From Amphiscolops sp. MND2022 (lineage: Eukaryota), in NCBI GenBank assembly GCA_964187785.1, contig OZ076409.1, positions 3,102,001 through 3,166,000 of the forward strand: a DNA stretch of 64,000 bases, given 5' to 3'. This document shows, piece after piece, positions 8,401 to 64,000 of the stretch. The stretch's first letter is position 1. The number at the start of each line of letters is the position of its first letter. Position numbers and translations under genes: made by a program. The notes under the pieces are model-generated. The model ran no database searches. It was not told where the DNA came from and worked only from the letters and a program-made list of their open reading frames with translations.

Positions 8401-9515
8401 CTTTAGCTTAGATTCCAATCATTATTAATCATACTTTTACTGTTTACAATATTATCTGTTTATAACTAAATTCAGGTATCTCTCTATACCCTGGGTTGAC
8501 CAATATAATAATCTTTTCCACTGTATACTTCAATTTCGACATTTTAATATTATTACACAAGGTAGCAGTATTTTATTTTCAACGTATTTTTGTATAGTGA
8601 TGAAATTCCCAGTTCACATTTTCCCCTGAAAACTAACAAAGGAAACGTACACTTATGATTTTAATTCAAAATGGGAAAAAATACGTTGAAAACGAACCAA
8701 TACTCTCAACCGAGTTGGGACAAAAAAGTAAACAATGGAGAAATTAGTTTCCAGCTTTTTGAAAAATTAACTCATTGGATTTCATTTTAGGCAGCCATTT
8801 CAAATCCAACATAGATCCTTATGGCTCATTAGCCGCATTTCGCCGAGAAGAGCCAAGTATGTGATAATTTAGGCATTTCAACAAAACCAATCGAGTTTTT
8901 GTTCGAATGAAATTACTGATGTTGATCAACATTTCCCCGTAAAAAGAGGCGGAATTTACGAAAAATGATCTAAGAAACTTTCAGAAAGCAATTGCATATT
9001 ACTTGTTATTACTTGTGGAATCAAATTCATAACATTATACTTATTTTGAATAAACATTTTTGGTACAAATTATCATATCCTCTTTTACTTTTACCATTTG
9101 AACTGCGAGTTTCATATCACAAATTTAGGGAAACATTCCTTTTCCAGAGATGTTTTATGCAAAGAAATTGTAAAATTAAGTGAATGCATGAATTTTCATT
9201 TATGATCATTCTTCTTGAATCATGGATATTTTTGCATGATCATGGAAGGATTCATGGCAAACTCATGAGTCATGGACGAAAAGTCATGATCTGTAAACCC
9301 GAGTGCCTAGTATCTATTAGTCATGCTTGCGGTCTTTCGAGTGCTTAACCTCTGCTAATTGGAACTTTGACCGAACGATTCCGCCGTTTGCGTTTATTAT
9401 TTTCCGCCCACATAAATGGGGGAGGAAAATCATGATCTGTGATGCGTGTTTTTACCAATTCTGCCAAAACTCCACTTCATCTCCACTCCGTTTATGCACT
9501 TAGTTACTTCAATTA

Positions 9516-9640
9516 TGGTGGCTCAGTCAGGTTGTAGGTCCTGTGGTGGTCAGTTGTAAGTCCTGGGTTCGAACCCGGGCTGGTGCTTGAATTTTTTTGT
9601 TTCCCAGCCAGTAGGTCGTGGGTTCGAACCTCTCCTTCGC
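9516..9640 (+). mobile_element. tRNA-derived SINE-like sequence (Pol III A box and two B boxes)
   Basis: TGGCTCAGTCAGG A-box-like motif and GGTTCGAACC twice. No clean cloverleaf. The upstream segment 9395-9445 recurs at 12020-12072. Confidence 0.5.
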
Positions 9641-36227: not shown

Positions 36228-36456
36228 TGTTGTATTCTCGATCTCTACGGTAAAAACGGGTGTGTATTCTAGAAAGTAAACTATATCTCCTTTCGTATTA
36301 ACTGTACTTTGGTTTCTCAATCTAACATAATGGTATATAAATAGCACAACATAAATAGACAGCGTTTAGAGTTTGTTTGTAAATAATGTCAGTCTCTATG
36401 TCTAGGTCCGTATGTTACGGTGCACGTAGAGGTCACGACGTTTGTATGATGTCACA
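36228..36456 (-). repeat. 3' LTR (229 bp) of a decayed Gypsy element, with adjacent PPT (36457-36466)
   Basis: TG..CA termini; minus-strand GGAAGAGGGA immediately precedes the LTR; located downstream of the integrase remnant. Confidence 0.65.
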
Positions 36457-45200: not shown

Positions 45201-45253
45201 TTCAATTTTAATTTATTTGTTTTCTATGCAATTGTCTAACTTGCAAAACGCCA

Positions 45254-47551
45254 TGTCGAGCCCCACTGTGTGGGCCGGCTTTGAAGGACCTTTCGAAGTT
45301 GATGGCCGATTTTCACTGTCTGTCTTACTTATAACGGCCATCATTAAGTCCTTCAGTTGACTAAACTCATTTTGTAACTCGTTTATCTTTCTTTCATAAC
45401 TCTCTTTTATTTCAGACAACTGAGACGAGATGTCAGAAGTTTCGTTACTATCGGAGTCATTGGCAGATGACTGGGCCATGTCTGGATTAATTGGAATAGA
45501 TGTTTCAGACGAAGAACTAATAATTTTACCACTTCTGAGCTCAGTACCTTGTTCTGGATTCATATAGACGAGGGAAAAGGATTATGAGTGAAGACTGGAT
45601 TATCTGAAATGTTATTGCGATGTATTTTGCTGTTCTATTCGATTTGTAATCCCTAATTCACTAAATTTGATCAGAGATGTTTTAACGATGATTAGTATAA
45701 ATGAACAAGTCGTAAAGAAAGTAGCAGGAAATTAGTAAGGTGAATAGGAAAGTTCATCCAATGTTCATCGCAGTTGTAAGTGTGTCAAAAGAGATTACTC
45801 AGTTTTTCAGTATTATAGTTTCTGAAGATGAAAATGAGATGTCTTTTCAAGTAAAATTCGACGTGAGGTGTTCAACTGGATTGTAGCTTGTCGCAATTTC
45901 GGTCTGAGTAATCGCTAATGGCGGTCCAAAATACAGCAGTTCACGTGTCTTTTCATGCTGGTAAGACGCTAAATCTCTTACCAGCCGACTCTTATTGGCT
46001 ATTGCCAGTTGGTGCTAATTGGTAAGTCACGTGACCGGTGTTGTGAACTGCCGCAAGTTGGCCAAACCACATGGTACATCTACATATGCTAATTATGACT
46101 AATCATCACTTTACAATGTCGCAATTACCTGCACGCAGCATCTTGGTTTCTATAGCAACTCAAATCATTCAATAATGTACTAATTTCAAGTCAAACCAGA
46201 GTAAACTGTATCACAGGATGGGAAAACGATGTTTTCCAACTAATTCCAGCACTAAAATCAATACTTCAAAACTAAAGATGGAAATGCGATGAATTTGTCA
46301 GAGTATTTGCTGATTTTCAAGCCTAGTTTAGCTCTGGATGAAAATGCGATGAATGGTGGTCCTTTCGCTCGAAAATCAACACGATATAAACTGACGATGA
46401 TAAAAGGATGAACTCGTCTTCAAAATGAACGATTTCCAGCACAATTTAAATCGACGATGGTAAAAGGATGAACTCTCCTCGAAAATAACTAATTTCCAGC
46501 ACTAGTGAAATTGACGATGAATTCAGGATGAATTCGGTCGATAAAACAGGTGAAGCAGTTAATTCTACAGTAAAGACAAATGTACGATGAGCTTAGGATG
46601 AATACATTCAATAAAACAGCAAAATCAAATGTATCAAATTCCAATGATGAGTTTAGGATGAACTCGTGAATTAAAACAGCAACTATCGAAGCAATTCAAA
46701 CTAGCGATGAGTTTAGGATGAACTCATCCACTAAAATGGTAAATCTCAACACAAGATGAAATCATGATGAATTAATGATGGATTTGCTAAACAAATCAGA
46801 TAACCAGCGCAATCACTCTTTTTTAGGATGGGTTAAGGATGTACTTTCTCATTTCTCTTCTATGCTAGTATGACGATGAATAAAGGATGTCTTACTGTCC
46901 TTAAGAAATGAGAAGCACATTTGTGAGTTTCTACATGAAATATGACGATGAATTAGTGATGAGTTTTACTAAAATGAGTCCCGTAAAATCCGCTGATGGA
47001 TTTATGATGAAAGGTAAAGTTTATTGTCCCATGCGTGGTTCATTCGCAATCTCGGAGATGGGATTGCGATGAACTTAATTAACAGCACCAGTAAATCCGC
47101 TGATGGATTTAAATGAAATCAAATCAGTATCATCACTAAATTAGACGATGAATTTGTGATGTATCTTTGATGAGATTTGTCACAACTACAAACTCTGAGG
47201 CGGGGAGCTAGTAGAAGTTATAACTTTCATCGTTTCTATATCTCGCGGTCCAGTCTGACCAGAAAACTTCTCTCCCTTGTCGTGACAAACCAATATTTAA
47301 GAAAAGTAGCACGTCTAAGGCTAATGGCAAGATCATTTATGCGGACACCGGAACTAGAGCGCTCAGTATTAAGTAGATATATATAAATCACACTCAAAGG
47401 GGGGAAGGGATTAAGGTACAAGTAACGTAGGGTTGCTCACAACCATGGCTCTTATTATATGACTTCATATTGCCCATATCTAAGTACATAAGACATAATA
47501 TTTACATCACAGATATTTAGTAGATTATATTTCCATCATGCTGGCATGACA
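45254..47551 (-). repeat. 3' LTR (~2298 bp)
   Basis: Left edge fixed by comparison with the other copy (TGTCGAG). Right edge inferred from the TGTC...GACA terminal inverted repeat at 47548-47551; not confirmable within the window. Confidence 0.8.
46217..47172 (+). repeat. Phased array of GATG-N7-GATG motifs (~16 units, period mostly ~60 bp, variable spacers) in the LTR
   Basis: First GATG at 46217, 46277, 46337, 46396, 46456, 46516, 46586, 46646, 46706, 46766, 46827, 46875, 46947, 46995, 47057, 47147. Duplicated in the 5' LTR from 63254. Confidence 0.92.
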
Positions 47552-48686
47552 CTCCCGGGGGTGGGATTTGGACTGAGAGTGCAGGGGCCAAATGTGCAGA
47601 GGATGGTTGTCTCGGCGTTGGCTTCGACTGTTTCCTTCGTTTTGTTGGGGAGAAAATGGCCTTCGTTAGTTCTGAACTGGCATGTCCTTCGTTTGTTCTG
47701 TCCTGTGAGAGCTTCTCTGAGAAGAGGACCTTCGGTAATCGTCTTTTTCTGGCATCATTCTGGGTGATTTCGGTTAAAATTTTCGACGCGGCAACTCTAA
47801 TTCTTGGTCCATCGAATGTCCGCTGATCTGCATTTTATTGGTTGTCATGCTTTTGACGGGAGTTTCGGCTGGTTATTTTCGGTAGAAGCTGATTTCTCGG
47901 AGAAAAGTTTCCCTCCAAAACGCCTACGCTGAATAAACAATTCGATTAGCTTCATTGACAAATTGGCAGCGAGTCGGGGATGAATGAACGATGAATTGTT
48001 TGCTCAGCGAGACATCGATGCTGGTTTAGCGGAATGGCTGGCGCCATTGCTTTGTTTACTCGCGATGGAAAGGAGATGAATCGTCGTCATAGCAACTGTC
48101 AAAAGTTACTCCCGCTGCTCGACTTTTGAGTGAATGAGAAAGAGATGAATTCGTCGCCATAGCAACTGTTGCTCGATCTGATTGGCCGAGACTGAATTTA
48201 TGACTGAAGGAAATTACAACCGGTTGTCAGCAGCATTCTCATCCATAAATCATCCTCCATTCAAGTCGGTTTGAAAATCGCCACGATTTCCTTTGCGCGT
48301 TTCCGCTCAACTTCGTCGGCATTGATCTGAGACTGGCAGCTGTCAACAAATCAAATACTTGAAGTTTTTTGTCAAGTCCTTAGGAGGGGACGATTCATTT
48401 TCAGGGAAAGCTTGAGTTGGCTGTACTGGGAAGAAAAGTGATGTCAGTATTTGAAATCGGAGAGTTTTTCATCGATTTTTCATCTTCTGAATTCAAGTAT
48501 TTGATTAACATGGCATTCAAGCTGCGTCGCGCTCTTTGAAATCTTCTATTGAATTTGTTCTTTTGTAATCATGGTTGATCAGGCCATTTAATTACTGATC
48601 AAATTCTCTGTTCCTGGATTCTTCGATTTCTTTCCTTCTTTCACCTTCTTCCATTCTTTTCAGATTGTTTCTGCAATTTCTTCACG

Positions 48687-50141
48687 ATGTCGGATATCAA
48701 CTCCGTCTATTCGTTACCGGAGACCGAGGCCACAGAAAGTAAGTGCACTATTTTTCTCTTCTTCACAAACGGGTCGGGGAATAATTAGGAACTGAAGGCG
48801 TGTCTTGGTTTTAGCGGACTCCGTTCACTCTGTCGGCATCATTTCCGAGCTGACTACATTGCAGACAGTTCCGCCTCAAGAGGCTCCAATCCATGCAGCA
48901 TCTCACGCACCTCAGTATCAACCCGAGCAGCAAATTGAACAGGCCCCTAACGTCCCGTATCTTCCGCAGTGTAAGTACTATCCTTCCATTCTTCAGTTCA
49001 GTCTTCGAATCCCTCATATCTCATCCTTACTTCGTCCAGCGCGACTCCTTTTCGTACGGTGTTTCAGACCACTACCCTTGGTATGCCTCCCTCGGCAGCA
49101 TCACCTTCGGGTGGTATGACCGCCACATGCGGGACATGCTGCGGGACAGCATCCAGCAGTTCAGTGAGTTTGTCAATTTCCTTTTCACTCCTCTAGGCTA
49201 TCGTCCGAACACTCCGATGTGATTCCAATGTAAACATCTCATCTGCATGTAGTGTCCTTTGCAGCCGATTACCCATGTAATTCATTTTTAAGATGAATTT
49301 AGGATGTGTCATGAACATTCACAGCTCTTCATGGCTGACTCGCTGTAAATCCCATTTTTGAAGATGAGTTTTGGATGAATTCTTCTCCGGTCTTCTTTCT
49401 TCGCGCGGCGTACGCGCTCTTTCTTCTCCAATCGTCGTCGTCCAGTAACTGTTTCTTCTTTCAGGCCCCACACCGATCCACGCGCCAAGGCCTCGTCCAA
49501 TCAGCTACTCCGTCGGAGTAGGGACGAGTGATTTCGTCACAGCTAGTGCTGATGCTAGCACTCAAGGAGGGCCCCCTCCACTAGAGTTGTCCTCTTTCCT
49601 TCAGGACCTGTCACTAGGTGCAGTGAGTTCTCCTGTGATGAGGGCTTCCGCCTCCGTCCTCTCGCCGAACTTCCATCGGTACCTCGACGCTAGTGCCTCT
49701 CCCAGAAGTCCTCCTCCTCCACCTCGCGTCACAGTTGACACAGCTGCAAATGCCGTTGTTGATTGCATAGATGCAGCCGTTGATGCCTGTGTGGATACTG
49801 CGGACAAGGAGGTCCAAGCCGTTATTGAGACTGCTGATGGTTCCACTTGTTATGAACCCCAGGTGGAGACTTCCCTGTCTGCTTCTCCTCCTCCACCGAT
49901 TGCTGGTGTTCCAGGGGCAGTTGACGTTGACGTTGACCCGTCCGAAGTTCCCTCAGCTGGCACCACCGAGACCCAACTGGAAATCCCTGGCGATCTCTCA
50001 TTTCATAGTCCTTCATCTGGCGTGTCTGCTCCAGGAAGTATTGCGTCCAATGTGGCTACTGCCGACCTCGAGACGTCTCCAATGGGACCCAGCCTGTTGG
50101 ACTCCGATGACGAGCCCATTGCATCTCGTCTGCCAGGTTAA
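48687..50141 (+). CDS. Accessory gene A (antisense to gag-pol): ~326-aa Pro/Ser/Asp-rich, probably disordered protein; exons 48687-48738, 48815-48970, 49068-49163, 49465-50141
   Basis: Donors GTAAGT, GTAAGT, GTGAGT; acceptors TTTTAG, TTTCAG, TTTCAG; all phase 1. The 981 nt join into one open frame from MSDINSVYSLPE to ...IASRLPG*. Confidence 0.7.
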
Positions 50142-50724
50142 CTAAACAGCTTTAAACCGGTGAAGTATCTGATCAGTAGATTTTCATTCGTTTCCTTCTT
50201 CGTTTTTACTTTCGCTAGCATTTTTCACGTTTTTCTCTTTTCTATCCATTTTCCATCGTTTTTCTGTTTTCACTATATGGTTTTCTGCAGTTTTTCATTT
50301 TTCATCATTTTCTCATCGTCAAAAGTTTTGAACAATAGTTTTTTCGCTCTCTGGTCCTTTTTTAGAACTTTTCATCTCTTTTACATCTTTAAAATTTCTC
50401 GTTTCGGTTTTCGCTATCTTTCAGTGTTTTCTTTTCAGTTTACATCTCTTTTTCATCGTTAAGTTGTTTTTCGCTCTAAAATATCTCAAATTTGGTTCAA
50501 AGTCGTTCTATTCATCTCTTTTTCATCGTTCGAGGCTATCATTCTTTAAGGTTTCCATTTTTCATTCTGGTGGTCTGCAAACACATCTCTTTTTCATCTT
50601 TTCATTTTTTCTTCGTTTTTCGCTTGTATTTCCGATGAAAATATTGTTTTACATCATTTTTTCATCACTCGGGGTGAACTTTTTGATTTTTACGTTTTAC
50701 CTTTGCATTTTTCGGTTTTTGAGG

Positions 50725-53384
50725 ATGTTCATAAGATGTGGTATGTTGCTGTGTGCTTTTCGATGGTGTTTGATATGTATGCTGTTGTGTTAAAACAGGG
50801 CGGAAACGGATCGCTCGGAGCTGGTTCAATCACGTGTACTGTGGCTTAGCTATTGGATACGCGAAATATCATCAGTCCCGTGAATCTTATGTGAGGTGCT
50901 TGTTGTGCAAGCGGGACATAAAGGTTGCAAGTCGTGGCATCACGACTTTTATGGAACATTGTCGGGGCGTCCAACATCACCGCCTCGATTGTCTGGTTCG
51001 GCTTAGACGCGGGCTAGCATTGCGGGATCGTGACGGCAATCTGATGTCAGTGTCGGACAGTGTGGCTCAATCAGCTTTGTTGGAAGGAGTGAGTGTGCCT
51101 ATTGTTGAGCGTTGTCCAGATGTTACTCCAGCAGAAGTTTTCCAGATGGAACTCGCAGAGAAACCTGTCTGGGAAGATCTAGAACAGGACGAATCGGAAG
51201 GCCAGGAACGTACTGTGCGGCTGTTCCTGTGTCTGGTGATTGATGCTCTATACCGGGACTGTGACCTGCTAAGTGTATGTGGATTATGGGAGCTAATGGT
51301 GGCGACCGATGCGCAGCACTTGACCATGTTTGGACGGAGGTGTCGACTGGATGATATTGTGGTAACTATATTTCTATTTCATTAGTTGTAACTAGTGGCG
51401 AATGGGCGGCAAATATAAGATTGACTTGTGTGGTTTGCATATGTTCCTGAGTTTGCAGATTTGATTTTTGTACAGTATTACATTTGTGTTTTAGGGCGTG
51501 ATCATTTTGGGTTTGTGGCCCTTCGTCATGCGGCGTCTGATTGCTTTGTGGAGTGAGTCGACGTTCAGTAGCTTCTCCATTGGCATCGTGGCGGACAGGG
51601 TCGTTGGGCGCGTGAGCATGTGTAGTTCAGAAGGGGTCTCGCAGTATATCCTGTTTTCCTTTAGCTACACGCAGGATTGGGAGCCACGATTAGTTTCATG
51701 GATTGTGAACCTGCTTTGTGGTGCTCTGAGTGAGATCTGTCCCCTAGGCCTAAATTGTGAGCTGTTCCCGCAGTTATATCGTGTCTTGTGCTCAAGTGCC
51801 GGAATTGGGACGATTAGCTTAGTACCCGTTCGACTGGCTGACATCAATCGACTTATAGTGGCTGCGAGCGCGAGAGTTCTTGGGGGCACCGACGTGCATG
51901 TCATCCTTAATCACTTGCAGTCTAGACTGAAGCCCTATGTGAAAGATGACCTGTTGTTGTCCTGTCCCAAACTGTTGCGGGTGAGTATCATAGAGCTTTG
52001 TTTTATCGAAGTTTATGGTTGTAATGGACTCGCTATGTATTATGTTTTGTGGGGGGGGGGGTTGGTATCTTTCCGTTAATAAAACTGTTTTAACTTGTGA
52101 TTTGTTTTTATAGTCGGTCTTAGAAGGCGAGGTGTCTTTGTGGGACGTGCCTGACGTTCTCTCTGAATTGCGTGAGAAGTGGCCTTTCATTTGCGGTTTA
52201 CTGAGGACACCTGATGACGAGGGAGATGTTGATCCGCTAGACTATGTGCTCTGTGGTGATCCTGGCGTCGCGATGCGGCTTCATGTCTTGAGTCTTGTTC
52301 TCCGTGCTCGTGAGTATTCTTGTATTATTTATTTCGTGTGTTTGGTTCGGGCGGCTAAGTCAGTATTGTGTGCAGGGGGGTTGGATTGGTTTGCAAGTAG
52401 GGTGTGAAACGTGTGCACAATTCTTATTCGCTTTTTGTTGTTTCAGTAGTGACTGCGTACCAGTGGAGTTTCAGCGACAGTGCAATTCGCGGGTGTCACT
52501 GGGCATATGAGAGCGCATGTTTTGTACGAGCCCTGTTGGTCTATGTGGTGGACGAGTCGGTCTTACCTCCAGTGACAGATGTACGTGCTTTTCTGAGCTT
52601 GGTTGTGTCTGGATTGGAGTTGAGTGGACCCAAATTAGAGTGGTTGCGGGGGCGGTTTGCAGTACACTCCGACGACTATGCAAATCTAGCCCAGTTCGAA
52701 GAGGATTTAGTGCGAGTGCGGAATTTCTTGCTTGCGGTCGTTGACGAAGTGCTCAATGTGAAGGGACTGAAGGATGAGGTGACATTCCACCTCAGTATCT
52801 GTTGTCCGGTCATTCTAGCAGAGGCAGAGACAGAACTTGTGGTTCAGGAGGCAAGCCGTTTCACGGAGTTACTTCTGGACCTCAAGCGAATCACGTCAGC
52901 TGAGCGGAGACGGATGGATCGCGACATGCCGAACTTTGTGGCCAAGTATCGCAGTCTTGTGAGCCCTGAAGTATTAGCTACGGCTGGTACTGAGATCGAC
53001 CTGTTCCGGGCGTGTGCTAGTGAATCGTCAGTTCGCTTCCTTCGATTCCTATTATGCTTGTGTGAAAGTCCGCAGTTTCCGTTGGAAACGAAATGTGTGC
53101 AAGTGGGTCACATGTCTAGTGATGTGACCAGCAGTGTGTGCGCTACGGTCGTCAGTTACTTGAAGGCACATCGAATACGCTTGTACGAGAGTGTTGAAGG
53201 GCCGCTATTGGATGAAGTCTCAGAAGCAGTTGGGCGTATCACGGATCTGTCAGATTTCACGGAGGAGCTCCTATGGGATGACATTGGCATCGTCGCGAAT
53301 GAAGATTACCGGCGTCATATCTATGAACAGTTAGGATATGAAGTGGATGGAGAGCGAGCAATGAGCCCAGAGATCGGCAATTAA
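50725..53384 (+). CDS. Accessory gene B (antisense to gag-pol): ~732-aa protein with N-terminal C2H2/BED-like zinc finger; exons 50725-50740, 50799-51361, 51495-51980, 52114-52309, 52447-53384
   Basis: Donors GTATGT, GTAACT, GTGAGT, GTGAGT with matching AG acceptors; phases 1,0,0,1. The 2199-nt open frame links four separately called ORFs. Motif CLLCKRDIKVASRGITTFMEHCRGVQHH. The first micro-exon is the least certain part. Confidence 0.8.
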
Positions 53385-56001
53385 CTTTGAATGTTGCAAA
53401 CTCAGTTGATTTAGATTTTGTATTATTTGTATTATTGTTTTTGTAGTATTAGTTCTTTAATGGATTACCAACATTGGGTACGGCCTCTGGATAGAGAGGG
53501 GAGAGAGAGAGAAAATTCTGCTACGTCGGAAAGATCGGTAGTAGTGTATTTACAACAATAGTTATTTTGGTGCCCAATATCTGTTTTTCTTTTGAGTTGT
53601 TAGTGATAGTTACAGAGGATATTAAGTACGTGTAAATCAACAAGTTCGTCCAACAGTTCACTTGAAGCATTGTCATCGGTATTTTTGTATCCTAGATCAT
53701 CGGTCGCGCATCGCTTTTTTGGTGTTCATCGTTATTACATCTCGTGGGAGTGTAAGTAATTCGTCAGCGTTTGATTTTTGATTTCTCATCTCATTTTCAT
53801 CACGTTTTCCTCGGTCGACCGTGCGACGTCGTGGAACCTGATTTTGTCATCGTTTTTACATCTTTCGGTGCGTCAGAAACATTGCATGTTGTTACATGTG
53901 GTTTTTCTACATATTTCATCATTTTTTCATCTTGCGTTTTGATTTCAGCACTTTCGTGCGTTATTTGCTATAGTTCATCGTTTTTGCATCGCCAGTTTGT
54001 CTTGTCCAGTTTTTGCTCATTTTGCTGTATAGTTCATCTTCTTTTCATCGTGCGTTTGAAATGTACGAATTTTGCGTGTTTTCGATGTTATTTGGCTATA
54101 ACGTAAGCAGGGGTTGCATTTTTCATGTCTGGGGGAAATTTTTATTAATATTGCGGTGTTTCGGAGTGTTTTCTTCATGTATTTTAGCGTTATACGGTTA
54201 TAACCGTTTGTCGTGTTTTTGAATTTGCATGAATTTTATGGTACATGTGTTTTGATCATCGTCGTCATGTTTCTAGTTTGTCAACTACGGAACGTCATTG
54301 CATGTATTTTTAGTTCGAATTCTGGTGACCGCCGCTTGCGTGGCAGTCGAAAATAATTTCACTCAGCAGTGGTACTGATAGCCTGTAGGCGTGCAAGGTA
54401 CTAGTGGCTTCAGTCCAAGGCTGGGTGAGTGGAGCTGCTCCGCTCCTTTCAGATGAATGGAATCTCGTAGTTTTGGGCTATATATAGTCTATATGTCATT
54501 TTTGCGGTTGGTTGTTTGCCATTATTCGTCGAAATGGGTTTGTCCATTTGACGGTCAGTCCGCTCAATTAATATGATTGACAACTACGGTTATGCATGTG
54601 TCCAGTTTTAGACTATCTGTTTCTTGTATTTGCATGTATGGATTGTTACATGATGTGTTCCTTTAAATGGGTTGCCCCATTATTGACATGTCGTTATATG
54701 TTCGGTGTTAGTTTCATGTGTTTTGATTTGATATTTTTATTTTCGTTCATTTGGACAGGGCTTTGTCGTCACAAAGCCCCTACAAAACTAACTGAGAATC
54801 CACTAGCCGCTGGATAACCAACGCAGCAAGCTTCATCCGAATATGGTTGTGAGCTCCCCGCCTCAACTAACCAGCACTCTTTTCAGAGAAATGCCAGCCA
54901 GCACGAAGGAATGTTTTGAGCTTTTCGATAGGGGTGTTTTGTATGTTATGAGCTGATGTTTACTGGGGGGTGCTCACTCCTTTGTTAGTTTTGTAGGTGT
55001 TTCGTCAGTTCTTATATTTTGCATGTAAGTTAGTAGGCTTCATGTATTTTCGATTGTTTGTTTCATTTTTATTCGTCTAGGTTTGGAATGCTTTGGTGTG
55101 AATTGCATATATTATCTCATTCATTTTTGAACGGTACATGTATATTTCGGTGCGTTGCTCATTTGTATTGCATGTAGTTTGGAATTGTTAATTTCTTTCG
55201 TGACGTCATTGATTTGGCAGGTCTTTGAACTTTACATGTATTGATCATTTCATTTTTGTGTCGCATAATTCTGTTTGCATGATTCGAAATAAAGTCGGTT
55301 GTTTTTTATCGTTTCGTGGAGTTACATGTTGTTTGAGAATTGGCTGATTTATTGTGATGTTATGTTGATGGTGTTTCCCATCACAAGGAGGTTTTGGTAA
55401 GTCATTTAATATTTTCGAATTTCCATTTAGACTAAATTCATCGTTTTGACATCCTCCAGCGAAGCTAGAGTATTGTGTAAGGTTAACGATAAATTCGGTC
55501 ACGATTTGATGGTAGTGCCCATCACAAATTCATCTCGTTAATTGATTTCATGTAATTTATGAATAATTGGATCTAGTTCATCACTATTTCATCCTCTAGC
55601 CGAGCTAGAGTCTTATGATAGCATGAACGTGAGTGCGTTCGCATTCTGATGGTATTTTCCATCTCGAATGCATCGCTAGTAAATATTGCATGTTGATTGG
55701 TCGAATTTTTGGCTGAGTTCATCACTTTTTCATCTCTCGTGTGTCTGAGCTAAATTTTCAAGTGGTTTTATCCTTTTTTCATTTCGAATTTTTGTGTGTT
55801 ATTTTTTCCTGGTTTTTTGGTCGTTTTTCATCCGCTTTACATCGTGCTTTGTTTTTATACGTTTTTCATGTGATTTTTAGTAACTTTTCATCCATTTTAC
55901 ATCTTCATGTGTTTTTTAAGTTAAAATTGCATGTAATTCGTTCGCTTTTGTGATCTGTTCATCCGTAACACATCTCAAATTTAAAATGAGAGTTTTCTTG
56001 G

Positions 56002-59000
56002 CTAAATCGTTACGTCTATTTTGTTGGTCTTTCTCAGTGCGTTTCTAGCTGAAGTAATCTCATGAATGAGGAAGTCTGGATACTTTTTCGGTGTAGGGTT
56101 CTCACGTAACCTGTACCTACTTTGATTTGATCTAGACGGTCTAGAACTCATCCTTTCTTCATCTTCATTTTGCGTGTTTGTCTGTTGTGACTGATTTTCG
56201 TGTTGTTCGTCTCTCAGAGGTACTCTTATCCTACTCTCATCGCGGGGAGGCGGTAGAATAATTTCTTCTCGCGTTCCAAATCTAACTGTAGGTGGTCTAA
56301 AGTTGTTGTGGTCAGTTTCTACTTGCTGATAGTCTATTCTCGTGGTTATTTCTGGTGGAATTACTTGTGGAGTGTGTTGTTCTTGTACCCGCGGAATTAT
56401 TTCTTCTGAAGGCTCTTCTTCGACTAAGTCTTGATCTAGATTGTCATTCTCATTCTGATCTACCTCGTCGGTCGTCGGAATATTCGAGTCGAAAATGTCC
56501 GTGTCTTCAACCCTTTCGGTGTCTGGGTAGAGATGTTTGGACACGTTGATGTCGTCAATCGGAAATTCCGGTTTGAACAATCTCAGTCGCATGCGATGTA
56601 CGCACTGAGTTTGGTGTGTGCCTACTTTGCGGATGATGTAGTTGCTATCGGATAGCACTTTAATCACCTTGTACGGTCCTTTCCAATGGAAAGTTTTAAA
56701 CTCTTCTTTGCTTCTCTGAGAGTCGTACTTAGGATCTAGTAGGAACACAAATTCATTCACCTTCAGTGGCTGTGCTCGTGCTTTTCTATCATAGTACGTT
56801 TTGTACTTGTGATAGGCGGAAATGATGTTATCTAGATTGTCTCTGAAGATAAAATTCATTTTGTCTAGAATTTCGTTCACGTCCTTACACTTTGTTTCAG
56901 CCGGTTTGTTTGCGTTTCGGAATTGCAGATCTAGTGAGTTGTATGGTGTTCTTCCGTGGAAAGTTTCAGTTGGTGAACATTTCAGTGAATCATGATACGT
57001 TGTGTTATGGGCCATGATTGCTATGTCGACATAGCGGTCCCATTGTGGTCTGTCTGCGTTTACACTAATTTTAAGGATCTTTTTCAGTTTCGCGTGCGTT
57101 CTCTCCACCATGCCTATTGTCTGCGCGTGCTTTATCGTGGCATGGGAGATGTGAATATCAGCCGCTTTCGCGATTTCAGACAGAAGTTCAGCCGTGAACG
57201 CCGTGCCCTTGTCCGTCAGAATGTGTTTGGGCACATACGCGTGTTTTGTGAAGATCGACAGTAATCCTCTGACTACGGAATGTGTATCAGGTCTCTTCAG
57301 CGGAACGGCGAACAGGTAGCGCGAGAAAACGTCAACAGCCGTCAGAATGTGTGTAAAACCGTTCGATGCCGGGAGTGGACCAACGATGTCTATTTCCAAC
57401 AGGTCTTCTGGTCCGTCGCACGGGTCGTAGATTTTTTGTAACGGTGGACGTAGTTGCGTTTCTTTTACACTTTTAGACTTCATGCAGTTTTCACATCCGT
57501 CAAGGACTTTTTGAACTTTACAGGCTAAGTTGGGAGAGTAATATCTTTTACGAAGTTCATACAACATTTTCTTTAAACCAGGGTGTCCTTGTACCGGGCT
57601 GTTATGTAGAGTCCTAATTATTTTCAAAATACAGTCTTCAGGAACGACTAACTGCTTGTGAGACTCTAGTCCCGTGTGATCAAAAAACTGTCTGTACAAG
57701 ACACCGTTTACAACTTGTAGGCGTTTTCGATTTTTGTACAACTTTTGAAAAAACTGGTCTTGCATATTAACTGGGTGTTGCAAAATTTCAGTACCTTCTA
57801 AAAATCTAATCATTTTTTGGATAACCCAGTTATTTTTCTGGACTTGAATTAGATCGATCCCCTCGGCGGGGCTAACCTGACTCCTTACCGGGTGTGATAA
57901 TGATACTTTACGGATGAATTGCGAGAGTTGAATTGGCTCGTCCACGTCTGTGAGGCGGTACGTCAGATGGTTGTCAGTCGCGAAGTCATCTGAGGCCGCT
58001 GTTCTCTCACAGTTGGTGAACTTCATCCCTTTCCCATCGTCATGAGCCACGTCAGTGCCAGTTGCCAATTTCATCTCTTTGACATCCTTCTGGCGTTTGC
58101 ATCTGAGTGGTTCGCTCGCGGGAAAGTAATCAGGCTCGTCTTCCTCCTGTTTTGGTGTACGGGAGGCGATGTCGATCTCGATTCTGTGAATTGGAATAGT
58201 ATCAGTCAATTTTAAATGTACACGGTCTTCAGGTCTAATCTCAAGCCGAGATAAGTAATCCGCTGCGGGATTTTCAACTCCTGGAACATGTGCTAATAGA
58301 AAATTGAACTGAAGGGTTTGATCGCAAAAATTCCAAAGTGATGGCGGGATATGCTTCGCCTGGAAAAATCTAGTCAAGGCCTTATTGTCAGTCATAACAA
58401 TGATGGGTTTTTTCGCACCCCACAAAATGTGGCCAAATTCATCGAAGGCAAAGTGCATAGCTAAAAACTCTTTGGCATACATTGTTAGAGACATCTGGCC
58501 GCCCTGAATTTTCTTAGAGCCAAATGCAACAGGGGCGTATGTATGTTTGACTGACGGGTCTGCATAATCCTCGATTAACAACACATAGCCGGCAGCGTGT
58601 TCGCTGGCGTCACACATGATTACCAATTGTTTATCTGGTAATGGCAATTTCAGAGACACTTTTGTTGCTTTTAACAAACTTTCATTAATTTCAAAAATAG
58701 CATCTTTATGTTGTTGGTTCAGCTTGAAAGGGACGTCTTTCTTGATGAGTTCTTGTAAACAACAAGTTTTATCAGCTAGACGGGGAATATAAGACCTGTA
58801 AAAGTTTACAAAACCAAGATAACGTTGCAACGCTTTCACTGAATTAGGGGGTTTCAACTTGGTTAAATAGTCTGTTACGCGTTTTTCGATGGGAGCAATA
58901 CCAGTGCTAGAAATGGTTTTTCCCAAGTACTCAATTTGTTTTTGTCCAAATTCACATTTACTCATGCTAAGTTTAAGACCAGCTTTGTGCAATTGTTGAA

Positions 59001-61095
59001 AAACAAGTTCAAGGTTAGTAATCAATTCTTCGGGTGAGTGTGCTGCAATTCCAATATCGTCAACATATTGGGCACAGCGGTCCGCTTTGACCAAGGGGTC
59101 CAAATACTCACGGATTACTCCTGTGAATGCTGACAAAGAACGATTAAGACCTTGTGCTAGACGTAAAAATGCAAAAGTTCTAGACCCAAAATTAAACGAT
59201 AACAGTTGGACAGATTGCTCATCGGCCATTGGAATGCAATGGTAGGCCTGGGAACAATCAAGTTTGCAGAAGTACTTTTTCCCGGCCATGTGTTGGGCAG
59301 CGTCAGCAATTGTTGTTACGGGATGATTGTGCTCACCGTAATCGTTTTTGATCAGGTGGTTTATTCTTCTCAAGTCAACTAAAATCCTCAATTTACCATT
59401 AGGTTTACGCTGAGCAAATATCGGGGAAGAGTATTTGCTGTGAGGCAAAGTAGTTATAATCCCGTACTCTTGCATTAGAGCTAACTCCACGAGCAAATCG
59501 TCCTTCAAATTTGTCGGAGTCGGGAGACTTTGTGAATAAACAGGTTCTTCATGTTGAGGTGTTAACTTAACTTTAAAATCAGTGTTCATGCCAATATCAA
59601 AACGATGTCTAGCAAAAATGGAGTTGTACTTTACCAGCAACTCCTTTACCTGTAACCGTTGAGACGGAGTAAGAAGCGAGTCGTCCCAGTTGAAGTTCTT
59701 CAGGAAGTTCATCCGTTGTTCATCGGATTGGGACGGGTCAAGCTTCTCGAGCTCTCGCAGTGCCAGAATCTCATCATAAATCCGTCGCTCAATTGCGTTG
59801 AGTTTGTCTGGCTCACTGCACGTCTCGGGAGTTGGGTACCACTTGGTTGACTTCATTTCAGGGTTCACGAACAGTTGGTTGATCACTGCTTCGGCTTCAT
59901 CTGGGTACTTGGTGATCAAGTTCAAGTGTTCCACTGGCATGGGCGTGATGTTTGCCGCCTGGTGTGGTGTCGGGATGCGAAAGTGTGCCAGAGTGGTATT
60001 GGCTTCAAGTGTGTACGTGTGGTTGTTTGGGTTGGTGACCTGGATTGTCGTCTTGCCCTCGTCTAGGTCAACCAAAGCTGGAGAAACAAGCAAACACGTC
60101 TTTCGCATGAATCCAGGTGAGCCCTCAACTGTACCAGTTGTAAGTGAGATGTCCTCGTCACTGTGGACCTGTATCATCACTTGATGGAGAGGAGGGATCA
60201 CTGTTCTAGTACTGGAACACAAATCAATTAAACCAGTTTTGAATCTGTTGTTCTTTTGCTGTCTAACTTGCATGGACATCATGTGATTAGGGAAGTGGAC
60301 AAGGTGGTTTTTGATGTCTAAGTTGACTGAGTACTTTTCAAAAAAGGACATTCCAATTAAAATTGTTCCCATTGTTGGAAGGATTAGGAACGTTTCTTCA
60401 AATACTTTTCCAGCAACGCAAAATCTAAGTAAGACTTGCTTACGCACTGGGACTAAGTTCCCGTTTGCTATTTGAATTTTGAAATTCGGAGGGGGGAATT
60501 CTTGAAGGATGGCTTCTGGATGAGCCGTTGTTATTTTTCGCAATTCGGCTCCAGACATTGCACTTTGTATTGCGCCTGTGTCTAAAAGTGCGCTGTTTTC
60601 GTATTTGTCAAACTGAAGAGGGACGTAAAGCATTTTATCTTTTTTGTTTAAATGTAAAGTGGGACTGAGAACGTGAATTTCTGTTTTAGTTGCATGTTTT
60701 TTAGCTTTTGAAGCGTTAATACTACTCTGTTTTGCATGTTTTTTAATACTAAGCCGTTTGTCGATTGTTGAGTGTGAAGTCGAGTCGTCGTCTAGATGGT
60801 GGGTTTCCATCTCTTTGGCATCTTCCACCTGCCTCATGGTGTTTGGTTGCCAGTTCATCGTTTGTTCATCGTTGATTTCAGCGAGTGAAGAAAAGCGGCT
60901 GCCGTTGAGTTGACGTGCATTTCTCATCGCTTTTTCATCGTTGGAAAGTCTTCGCTGATAGACGTCGTCAGCTTTTGGTCGTTTGTCCAGTGAAGGCTGC
61001 CATTTCTTCATTGGACGGTTGTGAGTCTGTTGTTGAGTCGTCAGTCGTTTGTCGCGCGTGTCGTTGGTAGCGGACGGAAATCGTGGCGGAATCAA
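56002..61095 (-). CDS. pol: Pol polyprotein (protease, RT, RNase H, integrase), probably expressed as Gag-Pol by -1 frameshift
   Basis: 1697-codon ORF: LLDTGA (PR), YVDD (RT), CDAS/TDNKAL (RNase H), H-x6-H..CENC zinc motif, DIVGP/TDKG/ERTH catalytic triad, WKGPY (GPY/F motif). Confidence 0.97.
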   Translation of the reverse strand: MIPPRFPSATNDTRDKRLTTQQQTHNRPMKKWQPSLDKRPKADDVYQRRLSNDEKAMRNARQLNGSRFSSLAEINDEQTMNWQPNTMRQVEDAKEMETHHLDDDSTSHSTIDKRLSIKKHAKQSSINASKAKKHATKTEIHVLSPTLHLNKKDKMLYVPLQFDKYENSALLDTGAIQSAMSGAELRKITTAHPEAILQEFPPPNFKIQIANGNLVPVRKQVLLRFCVAGKVFEETFLILPTMGTILIGMSFFEKYSVNLDIKNHLVHFPNHMMSMQVRQQKNNRFKTGLIDLCSSTRTVIPPLHQVMIQVHSDEDISLTTGTVEGSPGFMRKTCLLVSPALVDLDEGKTTIQVTNPNNHTYTLEANTTLAHFRIPTPHQAANITPMPVEHLNLITKYPDEAEAVINQLFVNPEMKSTKWYPTPETCSEPDKLNAIERRIYDEILALRELEKLDPSQSDEQRMNFLKNFNWDDSLLTPSQRLQVKELLVKYNSIFARHRFDIGMNTDFKVKLTPQHEEPVYSQSLPTPTNLKDDLLVELALMQEYGIITTLPHSKYSSPIFAQRKPNGKLRILVDLRRINHLIKNDYGEHNHPVTTIADAAQHMAGKKYFCKLDCSQAYHCIPMADEQSVQLLSFNFGSRTFAFLRLAQGLNRSLSAFTGVIREYLDPLVKADRCAQYVDDIGIAAHSPEELITNLELVFQQLHKAGLKLSMSKCEFGQKQIEYLGKTISSTGIAPIEKRVTDYLTKLKPPNSVKALQRYLGFVNFYRSYIPRLADKTCCLQELIKKDVPFKLNQQHKDAIFEINESLLKATKVSLKLPLPDKQLVIMCDASEHAAGYVLLIEDYADPSVKHTYAPVAFGSKKIQGGQMSLTMYAKEFLAMHFAFDEFGHILWGAKKPIIVMTDNKALTRFFQAKHIPPSLWNFCDQTLQFNFLLAHVPGVENPAADYLSRLEIRPEDRVHLKLTDTIPIHRIEIDIASRTPKQEEDEPDYFPASEPLRCKRQKDVKEMKLATGTDVAHDDGKGMKFTNCERTAASDDFATDNHLTYRLTDVDEPIQLSQFIRKVSLSHPVRSQVSPAEGIDLIQVQKNNWVIQKMIRFLEGTEILQHPVNMQDQFFQKLYKNRKRLQVVNGVLYRQFFDHTGLESHKQLVVPEDCILKIIRTLHNSPVQGHPGLKKMLYELRKRYYSPNLACKVQKVLDGCENCMKSKSVKETQLRPPLQKIYDPCDGPEDLLEIDIVGPLPASNGFTHILTAVDVFSRYLFAVPLKRPDTHSVVRGLLSIFTKHAYVPKHILTDKGTAFTAELLSEIAKAADIHISHATIKHAQTIGMVERTHAKLKKILKISVNADRPQWDRYVDIAIMAHNTTYHDSLKCSPTETFHGRTPYNSLDLQFRNANKPAETKCKDVNEILDKMNFIFRDNLDNIISAYHKYKTYYDRKARAQPLKVNEFVFLLDPKYDSQRSKEEFKTFHWKGPYKVIKVLSDSNYIIRKVGTHQTQCVHRMRLRLFKPEFPIDDINVSKHLYPDTERVEDTDIFDSNIPTTDEVDQNENDNLDQDLVEEEPSEEIIPRVQEQHTPQVIPPEITTRIDYQQVETDHNNFRPPTVRFGTREEIILPPPRDESRIRVPLRDEQHENQSQQTNTQNEDEERMSSRPSRSNQSRYRLRENPTPKKYPDFLIHEITSARNALRKTNKIDVTI

Positions 61096-62600
61096 AAACC
61101 CTGATTTATGTCTTCATCAGAGTAGCTTTCTTGGTCTTCTTCTTCGGCAACTGCTTGCATAGGGTTCATCGGCTTTTGTTGTCGTTTTAAATCTTGTCTT
61201 CTAGTTTTGTTGTCATCTTGTGAATTCGTTGCGTATGGAATCTTTCCATATGCAGAACTGCTTTCTTTAGGGACGCGTCGTCTGCAACCCCTTGCTGAGT
61301 GGCCTGTGTAACCGCAAATCTGGCAGACCAATTTTGGATTGTATTTCGGCTTATCTGGATCGGCTGCTTTCTTCATTGGGATTGCATCCTCCTTCTTTAT
61401 GCCGTTCGCTTCGTCTCGTTGTCGGGCGCGACATTCCGTTTTGCGGTGTCCTGTCTTTCCGCAGTAGAAACATTGTCCCTCAAATCGTTTTCGTTCTGTC
61501 GGTTGCGTGGTCGTCGTTGTTGTTGTGGGCTTCGTCGTTGTAATCGTAGGTGGTGCTGAGGAGGTGACCGCGTTAAATGGTTGGATTGCCGTAGGTGGCG
61601 CGACGTACTGCTGGTACTGGTATTTTCGCATTAGGTAGGTTTTGATTTCCTCTGGGGAGCTCTCTTCTTTGTTTGCCATAGTGAGCTCTTGTTGAATCTC
61701 GACTGGCAGTTTTCCAAACAAGAACATTTTGATTATTCTGTCGGCCTCATTGCCGAAGGCTTGTTTGGCAGTCTTCTTGAGATTTTTGAGGAAATCTCCG
61801 AATGTTTCTGTTGTGGGATCATAGCGTGCTTGGTCCCATTTGTAACGGGCCACTTCCTTTAGATCCTCTTTTGCAAATTCTTTTCTGAAGAGGTCGAGTA
61901 CATCCTTTAGTGTTGTCATTGGCGTTATCTGGATGGATTGCCAGTATTCTATTGCGTCATCTCTCAAAAGGCTTTGAAAGAAGTGTAGTTTGTTCTCCTC
62001 GGTGATTTTGTTGGCAAGCGGGCTAAGGTGGTTGAGGAGAAGGTGCTCAAATTCGACGAATTTGTCTTTTTGGCCTCTGAAATTTGGCACGTGTGTCTGC
62101 AGAAGCTTCGTGTTGGTGGTTGTGTTTTTGATCCGTTGGGGGATCGTCTCGATTGCATAGAGTAGTCGTTCCTCATTGCTTCTGGGGGTTGATTCTCCCT
62201 CTTCGTCTGAATCGTCTTCTTGGTAACTTCTGAAGTTGGTGAAGCTGGTTGTCGGGCGGGTGGAGCGGGTTTCTGTAGCTCCTGTCACCATGTCGAGCCC
62301 CACTGTGTGGGCCGGCTTTGAAGGACCTTTCGAAGTTGATGGCCGATTTTCACTGTCTGTCTTACTTATAACGGCCATCATTAAGTCCTTCAGTTGACTA
62401 AACTCATTTTGTAACTCGTTTATCTTTCTTTCATAACTCTCTTTTATTTCAGACAACTGAGACGAGATGTCAGAAGTTTCGTTACTATCGGAGTCATTGG
62501 CAGATGACTGGGCCATGTCTGGATTAATTGGAATAGATGTTTCAGACGAAGAACTAATAATTTTACCACTTCTGAGCTCAGTACCTTGTTCTGGATTCAT
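61092..62600 (-). CDS. gag: Gag (502 aa) with two CCHC zinc knuckles; starts inside the 5' LTR
   Basis: CFYCGKTGHRKTEC and CQICGYTGHSARGC; capsid-like central region; N-terminal coiled-coil; directly upstream of pol. Confidence 0.93.
   Translation of the reverse strand: MNPEQGTELRSGKIISSSSETSIPINPDMAQSSANDSDSNETSDISSQLSEIKESYERKINELQNEFSQLKDLMMAVISKTDSENRPSTSKGPSKPAHTVGLDMVTGATETRSTRPTTSFTNFRSYQEDDSDEEGESTPRSNEERLLYAIETIPQRIKNTTTNTKLLQTHVPNFRGQKDKFVEFEHLLLNHLSPLANKITEENKLHFFQSLLRDDAIEYWQSIQITPMTTLKDVLDLFRKEFAKEDLKEVARYKWDQARYDPTTETFGDFLKNLKKTAKQAFGNEADRIIKMFLFGKLPVEIQQELTMANKEESSPEEIKTYLMRKYQYQQYVAPPTAIQPFNAVTSSAPPTITTTKPTTTTTTTQPTERKRFEGQCFYCGKTGHRKTECRARQRDEANGIKKEDAIPMKKAADPDKPKYNPKLVCQICGYTGHSARGCRRRVPKESSSAYGKIPYATNSQDDNKTRRQDLKRQQKPMNPMQAVAEEEDQESYSDEDINQGF
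61095..61101 (-). other. -1 ribosomal frameshift slippery heptamer G GGU UUU
   Basis: Gag ends CAG GGT TTT TGA. The -1 frame reads GGG TTT TTG ATT CCG into pol and is closed by TGA TGA four codons upstream. Confidence 0.8.
62279..62290 (-). other. Primer binding site TGGTGACAGGAG
   Basis: Begins with TGG immediately after the terminal CA of the 5' LTR. Primer tRNA not determined. Confidence 0.75.
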
Positions 62601-64000
62601 ATAGACGAGGGAAAAGGATTATGAGTGAAGACTGGATTATCTGAAATGTTATTGCGATGTATTTTGCTGTTCTATTCGATTTGTAATCCCTAATTCACTA
62701 AATTTGAACAGAGATGTTTTAACGATGATTAGTATAAATGAACAAGTCGTAAAGAAAGTAGCAGGAAATTAGTAAGGTGAATAGGAAAGTTCATCCAATG
62801 TTCATCGCAGTTGTAAGTGTGTCAAAAGAGATTACTCAGTTTTTCAGTATTATAGTTTCTGAAGATGAAAATGAGATGTCTTTTCAAGTAAAATTCGACG
62901 TGAGGTGTTCAACTGGATTGTAGCTTGTCGCAATTTCGGTCTGAGTAATCGCTAATGGCGGTCCAAAATACAGCAGTTCACGTGTCTTTTCAGGCTGGTA
63001 AGACGCTAAATCTCTTACCAGCCGACTCTTATTGGCTATTGCCAGTTGGTGCTAATTGGTAAGTCACGTGACCGGTGTTGTGAACTGCCGCAAGTTGGCC
63101 AAACCACATGGTACATCTACATATGCTAATTATGACTAATCATCACTTTACAATGTCGCAATTACCTGCACGCAGCATCATGGTTTCTATAGCAACTCAA
63201 ATCATTCAATAATGTACTAATTTCAAGTCAAACCAGAGTAAACTGTATCACAGGATGGGAAAACGATGTTTTCCAACTAATTCCAGCACTAAAATCAATA
63301 CTTCAAAACTAAAGATGGAAATGCGATGAATTTGTCAGAGTATTTGCTGATTTTCAAGCCTAGTTTAGCTCTGGATGAAAATGCGATGAATGGTGGTCTT
63401 TTCGCTCGAAAATCAACACGATATAAACTGACGATGATAAAAGGATGAACTCGTCTTCAAAATGAACGATTTCCAGCACAATTTAAATCGACGATGGTAA
63501 AAGGATGAACTCTCCTCGAAAATAACTAATTTCCAGCACTAGTGAAATTGACGATGAATTCAGGATGAATTCGGTCGATAAAACAGGTGAAGCAGTTAAT
63601 TCTACAGTAAAGACAAATGTACGATGAGCTTAGGATGAATACATTCAATAAAACAGCAAAATCAAATGTATCAAATTCCAATGATGAGTTTAGGATGAAC
63701 TCGTGAATTAAAACAGCAACTATCGAAGCAATTCAAACTAGCGATGAGTTTAGGATGAACTCATCCACTAAAATGGTAAATCTCAACACAAGATGAAATC
63801 ATGATGAATTAATGATGGATTTGCTAAACAAATCAGATAACCAGCGCAATCACTCTTTTTTAGGATGGGTTAAGGATGTACTTTCTCATTTCTCTTCTAT
63901 GCTAGTATGACGATGAATAAAGGATGTCTTACTGTCCTTAAGAAATGAGAAGCACATTTGTGAGTTTCTACATGAAATATGACGATGAATTAGTGATGAG
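62291..64000 (-). repeat. 5' LTR (partial; truncated by the window end)
   Basis: Near-identical to 45254-46963. Confidence 0.95.

Follow-up and report, generated by a model that had tools for sequence, protein, structure and literature searches.

Why would a retrotransposon carry, in antisense to its own gag and pol genes, a spliced gene for a zinc-finger protein together with dozens of copies of a single short DNA word? This question is raised by a complete Ty3/gypsy element of 19,335 bp that occupies the minus strand at 45254-64588 of the window, by which we mean the whole 64,000-bp stretch of DNA analysed here (Amphiscolops sp. MND2022, contig OZ076409.1, positions 3,102,001 to 3,166,000). 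The original prediction had proposed that the gene and the repeated word, GATG-N7-GATG, might together form a self-recognition module. In the present analysis, a comparison of copies of the element points to purifying selection on the word, and the finger protein of the element itself is put forward, tentatively, as the factor that may read it.

The repeated word and the constraint on it

The array proved to be real and larger than had been thought. In 45254-64000, GATG-N7-GATG occurs 75 times (43 forward and 32 reverse matches), and a unit of the element counted with only one of its long terminal repeats (LTRs; unit length 17,037 bp) contains 58 sites, whereas 500 runs of a first-order Markov simulation averaged 0.76 and never exceeded 5, so the predicted number of about 50 copies was low. 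The remark that the 45 kb of flanking DNA had almost none was borne out, the 45,253-bp flank containing two forward matches, which overlap each other in a GATGATG run at 27301/27304, and no reverse match. Among spacer lengths from 0 to 30, length 7 alone is enriched, with 58 matches compared with at most 4 at every other length. The sites extend to a longer word of approximately R-n-GATG-A-A-W-W-W-r-n-GATG-A-A, that is, two GATGAA half-sites placed 11 bp apart, beyond which the information content is about 0 bits. Nor is the word equally frequent across the genome: in the 1.07 Gb of host sequence searched (1929 contigs), the strict form GATGAA-N5-GATGAA was found 12,647 times compared with 317 times for a reversed control, an excess of approximately 40-fold, and the places listed are clustered within copies of this family.

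The distribution of the sites over the element agrees with the predicted concentration in the LTR, the internal spacers and the linkers of pol, with 21 sites in the LTR, 29 in internal non-coding sequence and 8 in pol; accordingly, 50 of the 58 sites lie outside pol, gag and the exons of the two antisense genes, A and B (Table 1). Strand use differs by region, the sites of the LTR array being all on the plus strand and the three internal arrays on the minus strand. Seven sites of pol lie on its sense strand, at residues 59, 82, 98, 464, 1010, 1026 and 1651, all of them outside the Pfam domains and all in the sole frame that avoids TGA. Within the LTR, the arrays span sense positions 381-1337 and the only late AATAAA is found at sense position 2142, and for this reason the arrays probably belong to U3 and precede the sense promoter; read on the opposite strand, they lie upstream of genes A and B.

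Spacing between the sites is also regular. Neighbours in the LTR array are 48-49, 59-61, 70-72 or 90 bp apart, and the array includes two overlapping triplets whose members follow at 11 bp. In this copy, and likewise in 537 pairs from 11 loci, the spacing of same-strand neighbours was quantised at 11, 48-49, 59-61, 69-72 and 81 bp, with empty valleys between these values and a step of approximately 10.7 bp (arrays at 46217-47172, 50303-50652, 53698-54035 and 55439-55960). Helical phasing and slippage of an 11-bp sub-repeat both fit this pattern. A plain tandem repeat was considered and rejected, as Tandem Repeats Finder (TRF) recovered merely 2.1-2.4 units of 60 bp and the units of the array have diverged beyond recognition except for the motif.

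Conservation of the sites was examined in an LTR alignment of eight other copies against this copy, in which the eight core bases of each site were scored. In the LTR array, the cores were 89-99% identical to this copy in seven copies and 69% identical in the most distant one, compared with 67-90% and 35%, respectively, for the DNA between sites, and the LTR outside the array ranged from 71% to 95% identity across copies. In copy C10, for example, 123 of 136 core bases were identical compared with 508 of 703 bases between sites; a similar difference was seen in 8 of 8 copies, with Fisher P-values per copy from 2e-5 to 3e-13. These observations were further strengthened by pooled permutation, in which the cores of the LTR array reached an identity of 0.887 compared with 0.692 for random 15-bp masks within the array (sd 0.034, maximum 0.815 of 2000) and those of the 2.6-kb internal spacer an identity of 0.931 compared with 0.736 (sd 0.042, with 0 of 2000 masks reaching the observed value; 9 copies). 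With cores that are 89-93% identical and intervening DNA that is 69-74% identical, the comparison points to purifying selection on the motif cores. Because both orientations are used, duplex DNA rather than one RNA is the likely target, and the sites are, as judged from their conservation and orientation, cis-acting elements on double-stranded DNA that are kept by selection.

The element, its copies and its antisense genes

The description of the element as young, intact and giant was upheld. Its LTRs differ by 6 mismatches over an alignment of 2302 bp (99.74% identity) and were trimmed to TG..CA; the exact LTR edge falls at 45254, the same start coordinate that the original prediction had given. 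The 5' LTR extends 588 bp beyond the end of the window, and the remainder was taken from the same contig (loci L002 and L022). The 5-bp target-site duplication (TSD) TGGCG is present at both sides of the 19.3-kb element, and the frames of gag and pol are both open. Pfam matches were obtained for zf-CCHC in gag (E = 8.7e-5) and, along the residues of pol, for RVT_1 (569-734), RNase H (799-930), integrase zinc (1157-1215) and rve (1235-1325), with a protease DTGA motif visible in the pol translation upstream of the reverse transcriptase. TGG comes after the 5' LTR and a short GGGAG before the 3' LTR, where a primer binding site and a polypurine tract, respectively, would be expected. Neither a chromodomain nor an env was found; no Rfam match was obtained within 45000-64000, and the window contains no tRNA genes. 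In the host genome, approximately 17 LTR pairs that are 81-100% identical to this LTR were found among the 42 matches listed (40 scored of 1640 candidates), and the two LTRs within one copy were 98.9-99.9% alike in the seven copies tested. The element is autonomous and recently active.

Genes A and B are read from the plus strand of 48687-53384, in the region that separates pol from the 3' LTR. The prediction of two antisense intron-bearing genes, one of them with a zinc finger, holds as far as gene models are concerned, with GT..AG at all predicted splice sites and frames that are kept across nine copies. The introns of gene B measure 662, 133, 133 and 137 nt, and the three short ones have GTGAGT/GTAACT donors and pyrimidine-AG acceptors. 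GT-AG introns of approximately 130 nt, together with the nearest Atlas clusters, point to a eukaryotic host that is probably an invertebrate animal. Exon delta of gene B lacks a start codon. In gene A, phase 1 is reached both after exon 1 and after exon 2, and because either donor keeps the frame into exon delta, the arrangement suggests that the two genes form one alternatively spliced unit, from which a protein B of 968 or 1020 residues, depending on the donor, would be read over at least five exons. In nine copies, third-codon-position variation is in excess in every exon, the six checked splice dinucleotides are kept in all nine, and gene A is intact in eight, its stop being kept as TGA or TAA; exon delta, whose length varies through indels from 639 to 687 nt, is free of stops and a multiple of three in all nine. 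Where DNA alignment fails, the four downstream exons of gene B could still be recognised by tblastx, at 47-65% identity, and the frame of exon e4 was without a stop in 90 of 122 scored genomic matches. Both accessory genes are real as gene models; their splicing and expression are presumed.

Two conserved features were noted beside gene A. The block just inside the 3' LTR (Table 1), which across nine copies varies least within the accessory region, is open in both strands and matches no Pfam family; the polypurine tract may lie here, or else a promoter of the antisense unit or an RNA element. In addition, a strongly conserved pyrimidine tract ending in CAG lies at about 48620-48662, approximately 25 nt before the ATG of gene A; it resembles an acceptor and hints that an untranslated leader exon may precede it, perhaps within the LTR.

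The finger of protein B, encoded in exon e1, has nearly invariant residues C35, G48 and H55 in an alignment of 40 relatives, and an AlphaFold model of e1, with a predicted local distance difference test (pLDDT) score of 87.9, contains a beta-beta-alpha arrangement at residues 32-56 followed by helices. Its neighbours in the Atlas were zf-C2H2_12 or zf-BED (feature score 0.91-0.92, 165-167 shared features), and Foldseek returned weak rows for Hermes (E = 1.4), ZBED1 (2ct5) and ZBED3 (9l4j); these are weak leads, all of them sub-threshold, toward a BED- or zf-C2H2_12-like finger. VIA-wide structural rows for e1 reached a Z of 6.3 but were confined to the helical hairpin at 132-189, the finger being barely covered. 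For all frames of genes A and B, Pfam gave nothing at E<=0.01 and, at E<=10, only sub-threshold zf-BED, EABR and SLX1_C; none of 20 homologues scanned with Pfam carried a family that explains protein B. Homologues of e4 were not found among longer proteins, and the homologues of e4 and e1 that were found are all unnamed and of one source type. The C-terminal 311 residues, encoded by e4, were modelled as helical with a pLDDT of 61.8 (residues 206-311 below 50), with no Foldseek match at E<=0.001 and a best VIA-wide Z of 5.7, to helical hairpins only. Protein B, as modelled, would begin with a disordered region, followed by a single BED-like C2H2 finger and then by a helical body without a fold match. 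A hAT-transposase origin of gene B, which the BED-like finger had raised, was rejected, as signals of hAT dimerisation or of an RNase-H-like domain were missing from every search.

The body of protein B is strikingly variable between copies. Copies whose LTR and pol are 81-95% identical as DNA carry gene B variants that are 41-69% identical as protein, the same range being found for e2-e4 across variants, and in three copies the stretch equivalent to 51053-53722 could not be aligned by blastn even though both flanks could. Between variants, the proportion of differing synonymous sites (pS) was 0.70-0.88, which is saturated, and that of differing nonsynonymous sites (pN) was 0.16-0.42. Where the synonymous rate (dS) was at least 0.09 and unsaturated, its ratio to the nonsynonymous rate (dN/dS) was 0.10-0.20, with an exception of 0.42 in e1 of ref/C6; pairs with dS near 0.02 gave noisy dN/dS values of 0.11-0.96. 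Breakpoints fall inside gene B, as illustrated by C10 against C2, in which e4 has a pS of 0.02 but e1 a pS of 0.81. Given saturated synonymous sites, low dN/dS and near-identical flanks, the variants of gene B are, by these measures, old, under purifying selection and recombined into a young backbone. The finger stands apart from this variation: in variant copies, its segment (e1 residues 30-85) is 79-90% identical compared with 40-62% for the rest of e1. The recombination region itself was placed at 51053-53722 of the window and at the equivalents in L011-L037.

Table 1. Features of the Ty3/gypsy element in window coordinates, site counts of GATG-N7-GATG by region, and frames of the type-II finger gene in coordinates of its own locus
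Feature	Position	Strand	Description
3' LTR	45254..47551	-	2298 bp, TG..CA, then TSD TGGCG; 99.74% identical to 5' LTR
LTR sites outside the array	45676, 45755 (reverse), 45827		extra motif sites
LTR array	46217..47172	+	18 sites, all antisense to gag-pol
Conserved block	47553..47822	.	just inside 3' LTR; 2-5% variable positions vs 10-35% elsewhere
Gene A, exons	48687-48738, 48815-48970, 49068-49222	+	120 aa
Gene B, exon delta	49465..50136	+	phase 1; Pro/Ser/Ala/acidic-rich, fast-evolving
Array in 662-nt delta-e1 intron	50303..50738	-	6 minus sites ~70 bp apart and 1 plus site
Gene B, exon e1	50799..51361	+	zinc finger C-x2-C-x16-H-x5-H at about 50897-50980
Gene B, exons e2, e3, e4	51495-51980, 52114-52309, 52447-53384 (including stop)	+	hypervariable body
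Array downstream of gene B stop	53698..54049	-	7 minus-strand sites
Array just 3' of pol stop	55356..55974	-	8 minus sites and 1 plus site at 55356
pol (PR-RT-RNase H-IN)	56002..61113	-	1703 codons; -1 frame relative to gag
gag frame	61092..62618	-	stop to stop, overlaps LTR edge; two CCHC-like knuckles
5' LTR	62291..64000 inside window, end 64588	-	2298 bp; same motif array as 3' LTR
Sites per LTR			21 (18 in array 46217-47172)
Sites, LTR to gene A start			4
Sites, gene A stop to next acceptor			2
Sites, large gene B intron			7
Sites, gene B stop to pol stop			16
Sites in pol			8
Sites in coding exons of genes A and B			0
Sites in gag			0
Type-II finger gene frames	7991-8923, 9030-11180, 11240-11731, 12047-13351 (local)		locus L038-L040

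Several observations were made on the surroundings of the element and on its relatives. A further copy of the family lies upstream at G000:C1:3070069-3085136, 17-32 kb before the start of the window, where clustered motif matches and a finger-exon match were found. At L032-L034 (G000:C4:61269000-61292000), a direct repeat of 4146 bp takes in approximately 1.9 kb of internal sequence in addition to the LTR, an arrangement suggestive of tandem or recombined elements with a common LTR, and G000:C12 at 36.35-36.38 Mb has three consecutive LTRs among the matches listed. Within the window, the flank at 36400-44000 is GC-rich (43-49% GC in 38-44 kb compared with approximately 36% elsewhere) and includes a decayed piece of reverse-transcriptase sequence (37458-37826, minus strand), left next to the insertion by an older retroelement that is unrelated to the present one. 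Farther away, a 306-codon open frame at 20611-21528 on the minus strand contains a glycosyltransferase family 2 domain (E = 2.9e-8) and is probably a host-gene exon.

Candidate binders of the sites

That the sites are selected, element-specific, independent of orientation, strictly spaced, tolerated in the coding linkers of pol and absent from the accessory exons argues for the binding of a protein on duplex DNA across the element. We tentatively favour protein B as this protein. The antisense unit between pol and the 3' LTR would encode protein A and, by probable alternative splicing, protein B, whose conserved finger would recognise the bipartite sites. With half-sites one helical turn apart, many molecules of protein B could load along the U3 of the LTR and the internal spacers, and such loading, in trans on every copy, would set the transcription or chromatin state, either by activation or by anti-silencing, with the variable body of the protein facing the host. 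A self-encoded binder of this kind, acting on the transcription or chromatin of all copies, is placed first because of the conserved finger, the activator-like disordered part and a sister lineage that pairs another finger with another word, and we would give it somewhat less than an even chance. A more far-reaching version is rather doubtful, namely that a VANC-like self-recognition module evolved independently in an LTR retrotransposon, with a helically phased lattice of approximately 58 sites marking copies as "self" and so destined for activation or shielded from silencing, lineages having switched finger and motif jointly and the body of the protein serving as an arms-race interface.

The relation between finger and motif was followed across related elements. 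Five loci with divergent finger exons contain 41-82 motif matches per 23-kb locus in the same layout, and in a third lineage, in which the finger exon is 43% identical and the finger helix similar, the top dyad is again GATG-N7-GATG, with 10 sites in 10 kb. A more distant, type-II finger (25% identity over the exon, with different helix residues) has more than 3000 candidate places in the genome. One type-II locus (L038-L040, G000:C4:55304500-55330499, local 7991-20294) has a gypsy-type pol on one strand and, antisense to it, a larger finger gene of several exons, and its 26 kb contain one chance-level match to GATG-N7-GATG and seven sites (at most 2 mismatches) of a 32-nt word, GCCC-N3-GGAC-N5-GTCC-N5-GGTGAAA, which includes the inverted repeat GGAC-N5-GTCC. 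Pairs of these sites, with members separated by 57-70 bp, occur downstream of gene B, within pol and also upstream of gag. The 32-nt word is absent from the present element even at 4 mismatches and occurs 2,872 times genome-wide compared with 3 times for its control, in clusters that resemble LTR pairs with an internal pair. A further 3.5-kb locus with a type-II-like finger exon (L042), too short to be informative, showed neither motif.

Co-variation of finger and motif, a check suggested together with the original prediction, was therefore found only as one deep contrast at a single locus, where both differ in the way that the original prediction would expect; within the family, the motif is constant while the body of protein B varies, and the finger is conserved along with the motif. 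The proposed self-recognition module is partly supported, by an element-specific motif under selection and by a conserved finger.

Several points weigh against protein B as the binder. The conserved finger and the constant motif fit such a binder but fall short of true co-variation; moreover, the deep contrast comes from one locus of the second lineage, truncated and with no LTR pair seen, and any two features of a lineage will differ jointly through linkage alone. Since a single finger usually recognises 3-5 bp, protein B would have to oligomerise to bind a 17-bp direct repeat. For e1, zf-BED scored 13.2 bits in Pfam, under the cut-off of 20.6 (E = 0.096), Foldseek gave no match at E<=0.001 and a PDB sequence profile search gave no match. 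Copy C12 (L013-L014, G000:C12:33225300-33238300) has lost gene B together with the 3' half of pol (the equivalent of 50627-57841) and has kept its LTR arrays, its own LTRs being 99.5% alike; it probably moved in trans, and because it is young and yet has kept the arrays, these would work, or at least persist, without gene B in cis. Finally, the identities of cores and intervening DNA were obtained from copies that are related and so not independent, with an aligner that may favour GATG placed over GATG.

A host DNA-binding protein of the transcription-factor or insulator type, for which the arrays would be selected sites, explains the same data nearly as well as protein B; genes A and B would then do otherwise, for example, in counter-defence or nuclear import. 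All evidence for selection on the motif applies equally to such a protein, as does the constancy of the motif while the body of gene B varies widely, and the young copy that retains its arrays without gene B is in its favour as well. A precedent is the insulator of Drosophila gypsy, a set of 12 sites in the 5' untranslated region to which Su(Hw), a zinc-finger protein of the host, is described to bind (PMC2374998). Set against this, two sister superfamilies in one genome have different motifs with the same 57-70-bp pair spacing and similar placement (in the LTR, at the junction of pol and gene B, and within pol), and because the sister motifs match in spacing and placement, paralogous element-encoded binders are simpler than two unrelated host factors; the approximately 40-fold excess of the strict motif, clustered among the places listed in copies of this family, also speaks against a host factor. 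We regard the host factor as a serious rival, somewhat less probable than protein B.

The sites could also be bound by another product of the element, such as protein A, the Gag nucleocapsid or the integrase, with a role in the complementary DNA (cDNA)/pre-integration complex or in packaging. The two CCHC-type knuckles of Gag, the conservation of protein A and the spread of sites across the whole element, including pol, would suit such a role, but the mixed strand orientation disfavours a single-stranded RNA packaging signal, gag and the exons of genes A and B contain no sites, and nothing ties protein A to DNA; this explanation is improbable. A role of the motif in RNA, as a splicing enhancer, an export element or a small-RNA-related element of sense or antisense transcripts, is a slimmer prospect still. 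Purine-rich words of the GAUGAA type resemble exonic splicing enhancers, and arrays are found in an intron and in the presumed untranslated regions of both transcription units; against this, the strict 11-bp spacing of half-sites, the quantisation at approximately 10.7 bp and the use of both orientations fit a duplex, no Rfam match was obtained and the spliced exons are free of sites. The least probable account takes the arrays as decaying, functionless minisatellites carried along by a successful family, in keeping with a period of approximately 60 bp, the short tandem stretches seen by TRF, the fact that tandem repeats in LTRs are common and the possibility that slippage of an 11-bp sub-repeat could yield quantised spacing, but it is at odds with cores conserved well above the surrounding DNA, with the same word in five separate places and in pol coding sequence, and with its recurrence in the lineage whose finger exon is merely 43% identical.

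Known systems and the place of this family

The system nearest to the proposed role of protein B is that of VANC and VANDAL in Arabidopsis, to which the original prediction had already pointed in agreement with Hosaka et al. 2017 (PMC5735166). As described there, VANC21 binds YAGTATTAY, a motif that is enriched and arrayed in the non-coding parts of its own transposon (PMC5735166). Common to both systems are a short motif enriched in the element's own copies, mainly in non-coding sequence and in dense arrays, often as tandem repeats that diverge between relatives, and an accessory protein that is dispensable for the chemistry of transposition (PMC5735166). For VANC21, binding and loss of methylation are described as shown (PMC5735166); in the present system, binding by protein B is a prediction. 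VANDAL is a Mutator-like DNA transposon, whereas the present element is an LTR retrotransposon in what is probably another host kingdom, and unlike in VANC, its motif is bipartite, lies also in coding linkers and is used in both orientations. Membership of gene B in the VANC family was not indicated, no Pfam family reaching its curated cut-off in any exon.

Complex retroviruses offer a second comparison. In HTLV-1, the 3' LTR drives the spliced gene HBZ in antisense, and Tax acts on 21-bp repeats in U3. The present element resembles HTLV-1 in having an antisense spliced accessory gene beside the 3' LTR, here as gene models, and repeats in a likely U3; it differs from HTLV-1 in having no bZIP, no Tax-like protein and no env.

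Within the Ty3/gypsy elements, antisense extra open reading frames (ORFs) between pol and the 3' LTR are described, with function unknown, for Grande of maize, RIRE2 of rice and Retand of Silene (available text of PMC7264820), and brtn of the Boty-like elements in Botrytis is an antisense additional ORF (cited in PMC8365987); in animals, antisense extra ORFs are mentioned in general terms only in the corresponding text of PMC8220671. The antisense genes reported here share with Grande, RIRE2, Retand and brtn the position and orientation of the extra gene, its retention in most copies and a suspected regulatory role. As those elements are described, the present one is set apart by two genes, of 3 and at least 5 exons, with probable alternative splicing, and by the zinc finger, the hypervariable recombining body and the element-wide selected motif. 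The Drosophila gypsy element is likewise a Ty3/gypsy element with a cluster of repeated sites and unconserved spacers, and its binder is a zinc-finger protein; the source describes one 340-bp cluster and a host binder, compared with 58 sites in at least five clusters over 19 kb and an own candidate binder in the present case (PMC2374998). In the open-access texts searched, no LTR retrotransposon was found described with both an antisense zinc-finger gene and an element-wide selected motif.

What is new here is the combination of these features in one intact and abundant family, with a measured constraint on the motif and a multi-exon, probably alternatively spliced unit, together with a finger that stays constant next to a protein body of old, recombining variants and a sister lineage with another motif. 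Few cases are understood in which a retrotransposon escapes from host silencing or tunes it, and the one well-studied self-recognition system, that of VANC, belongs to plant DNA transposons. The family presents an unusually clean natural system in which hundreds of young copies, a constrained short motif, an element-encoded candidate binder and the contrast of a sister lineage are found together, and it offers a clue, at the level of function, to the antisense extra ORFs of Ty3/gypsy elements, which have long gone unexplained. Should the binder be a host protein, it would still be striking for a retrotransposon to keep a putative protein-binding lattice of 58 sites.

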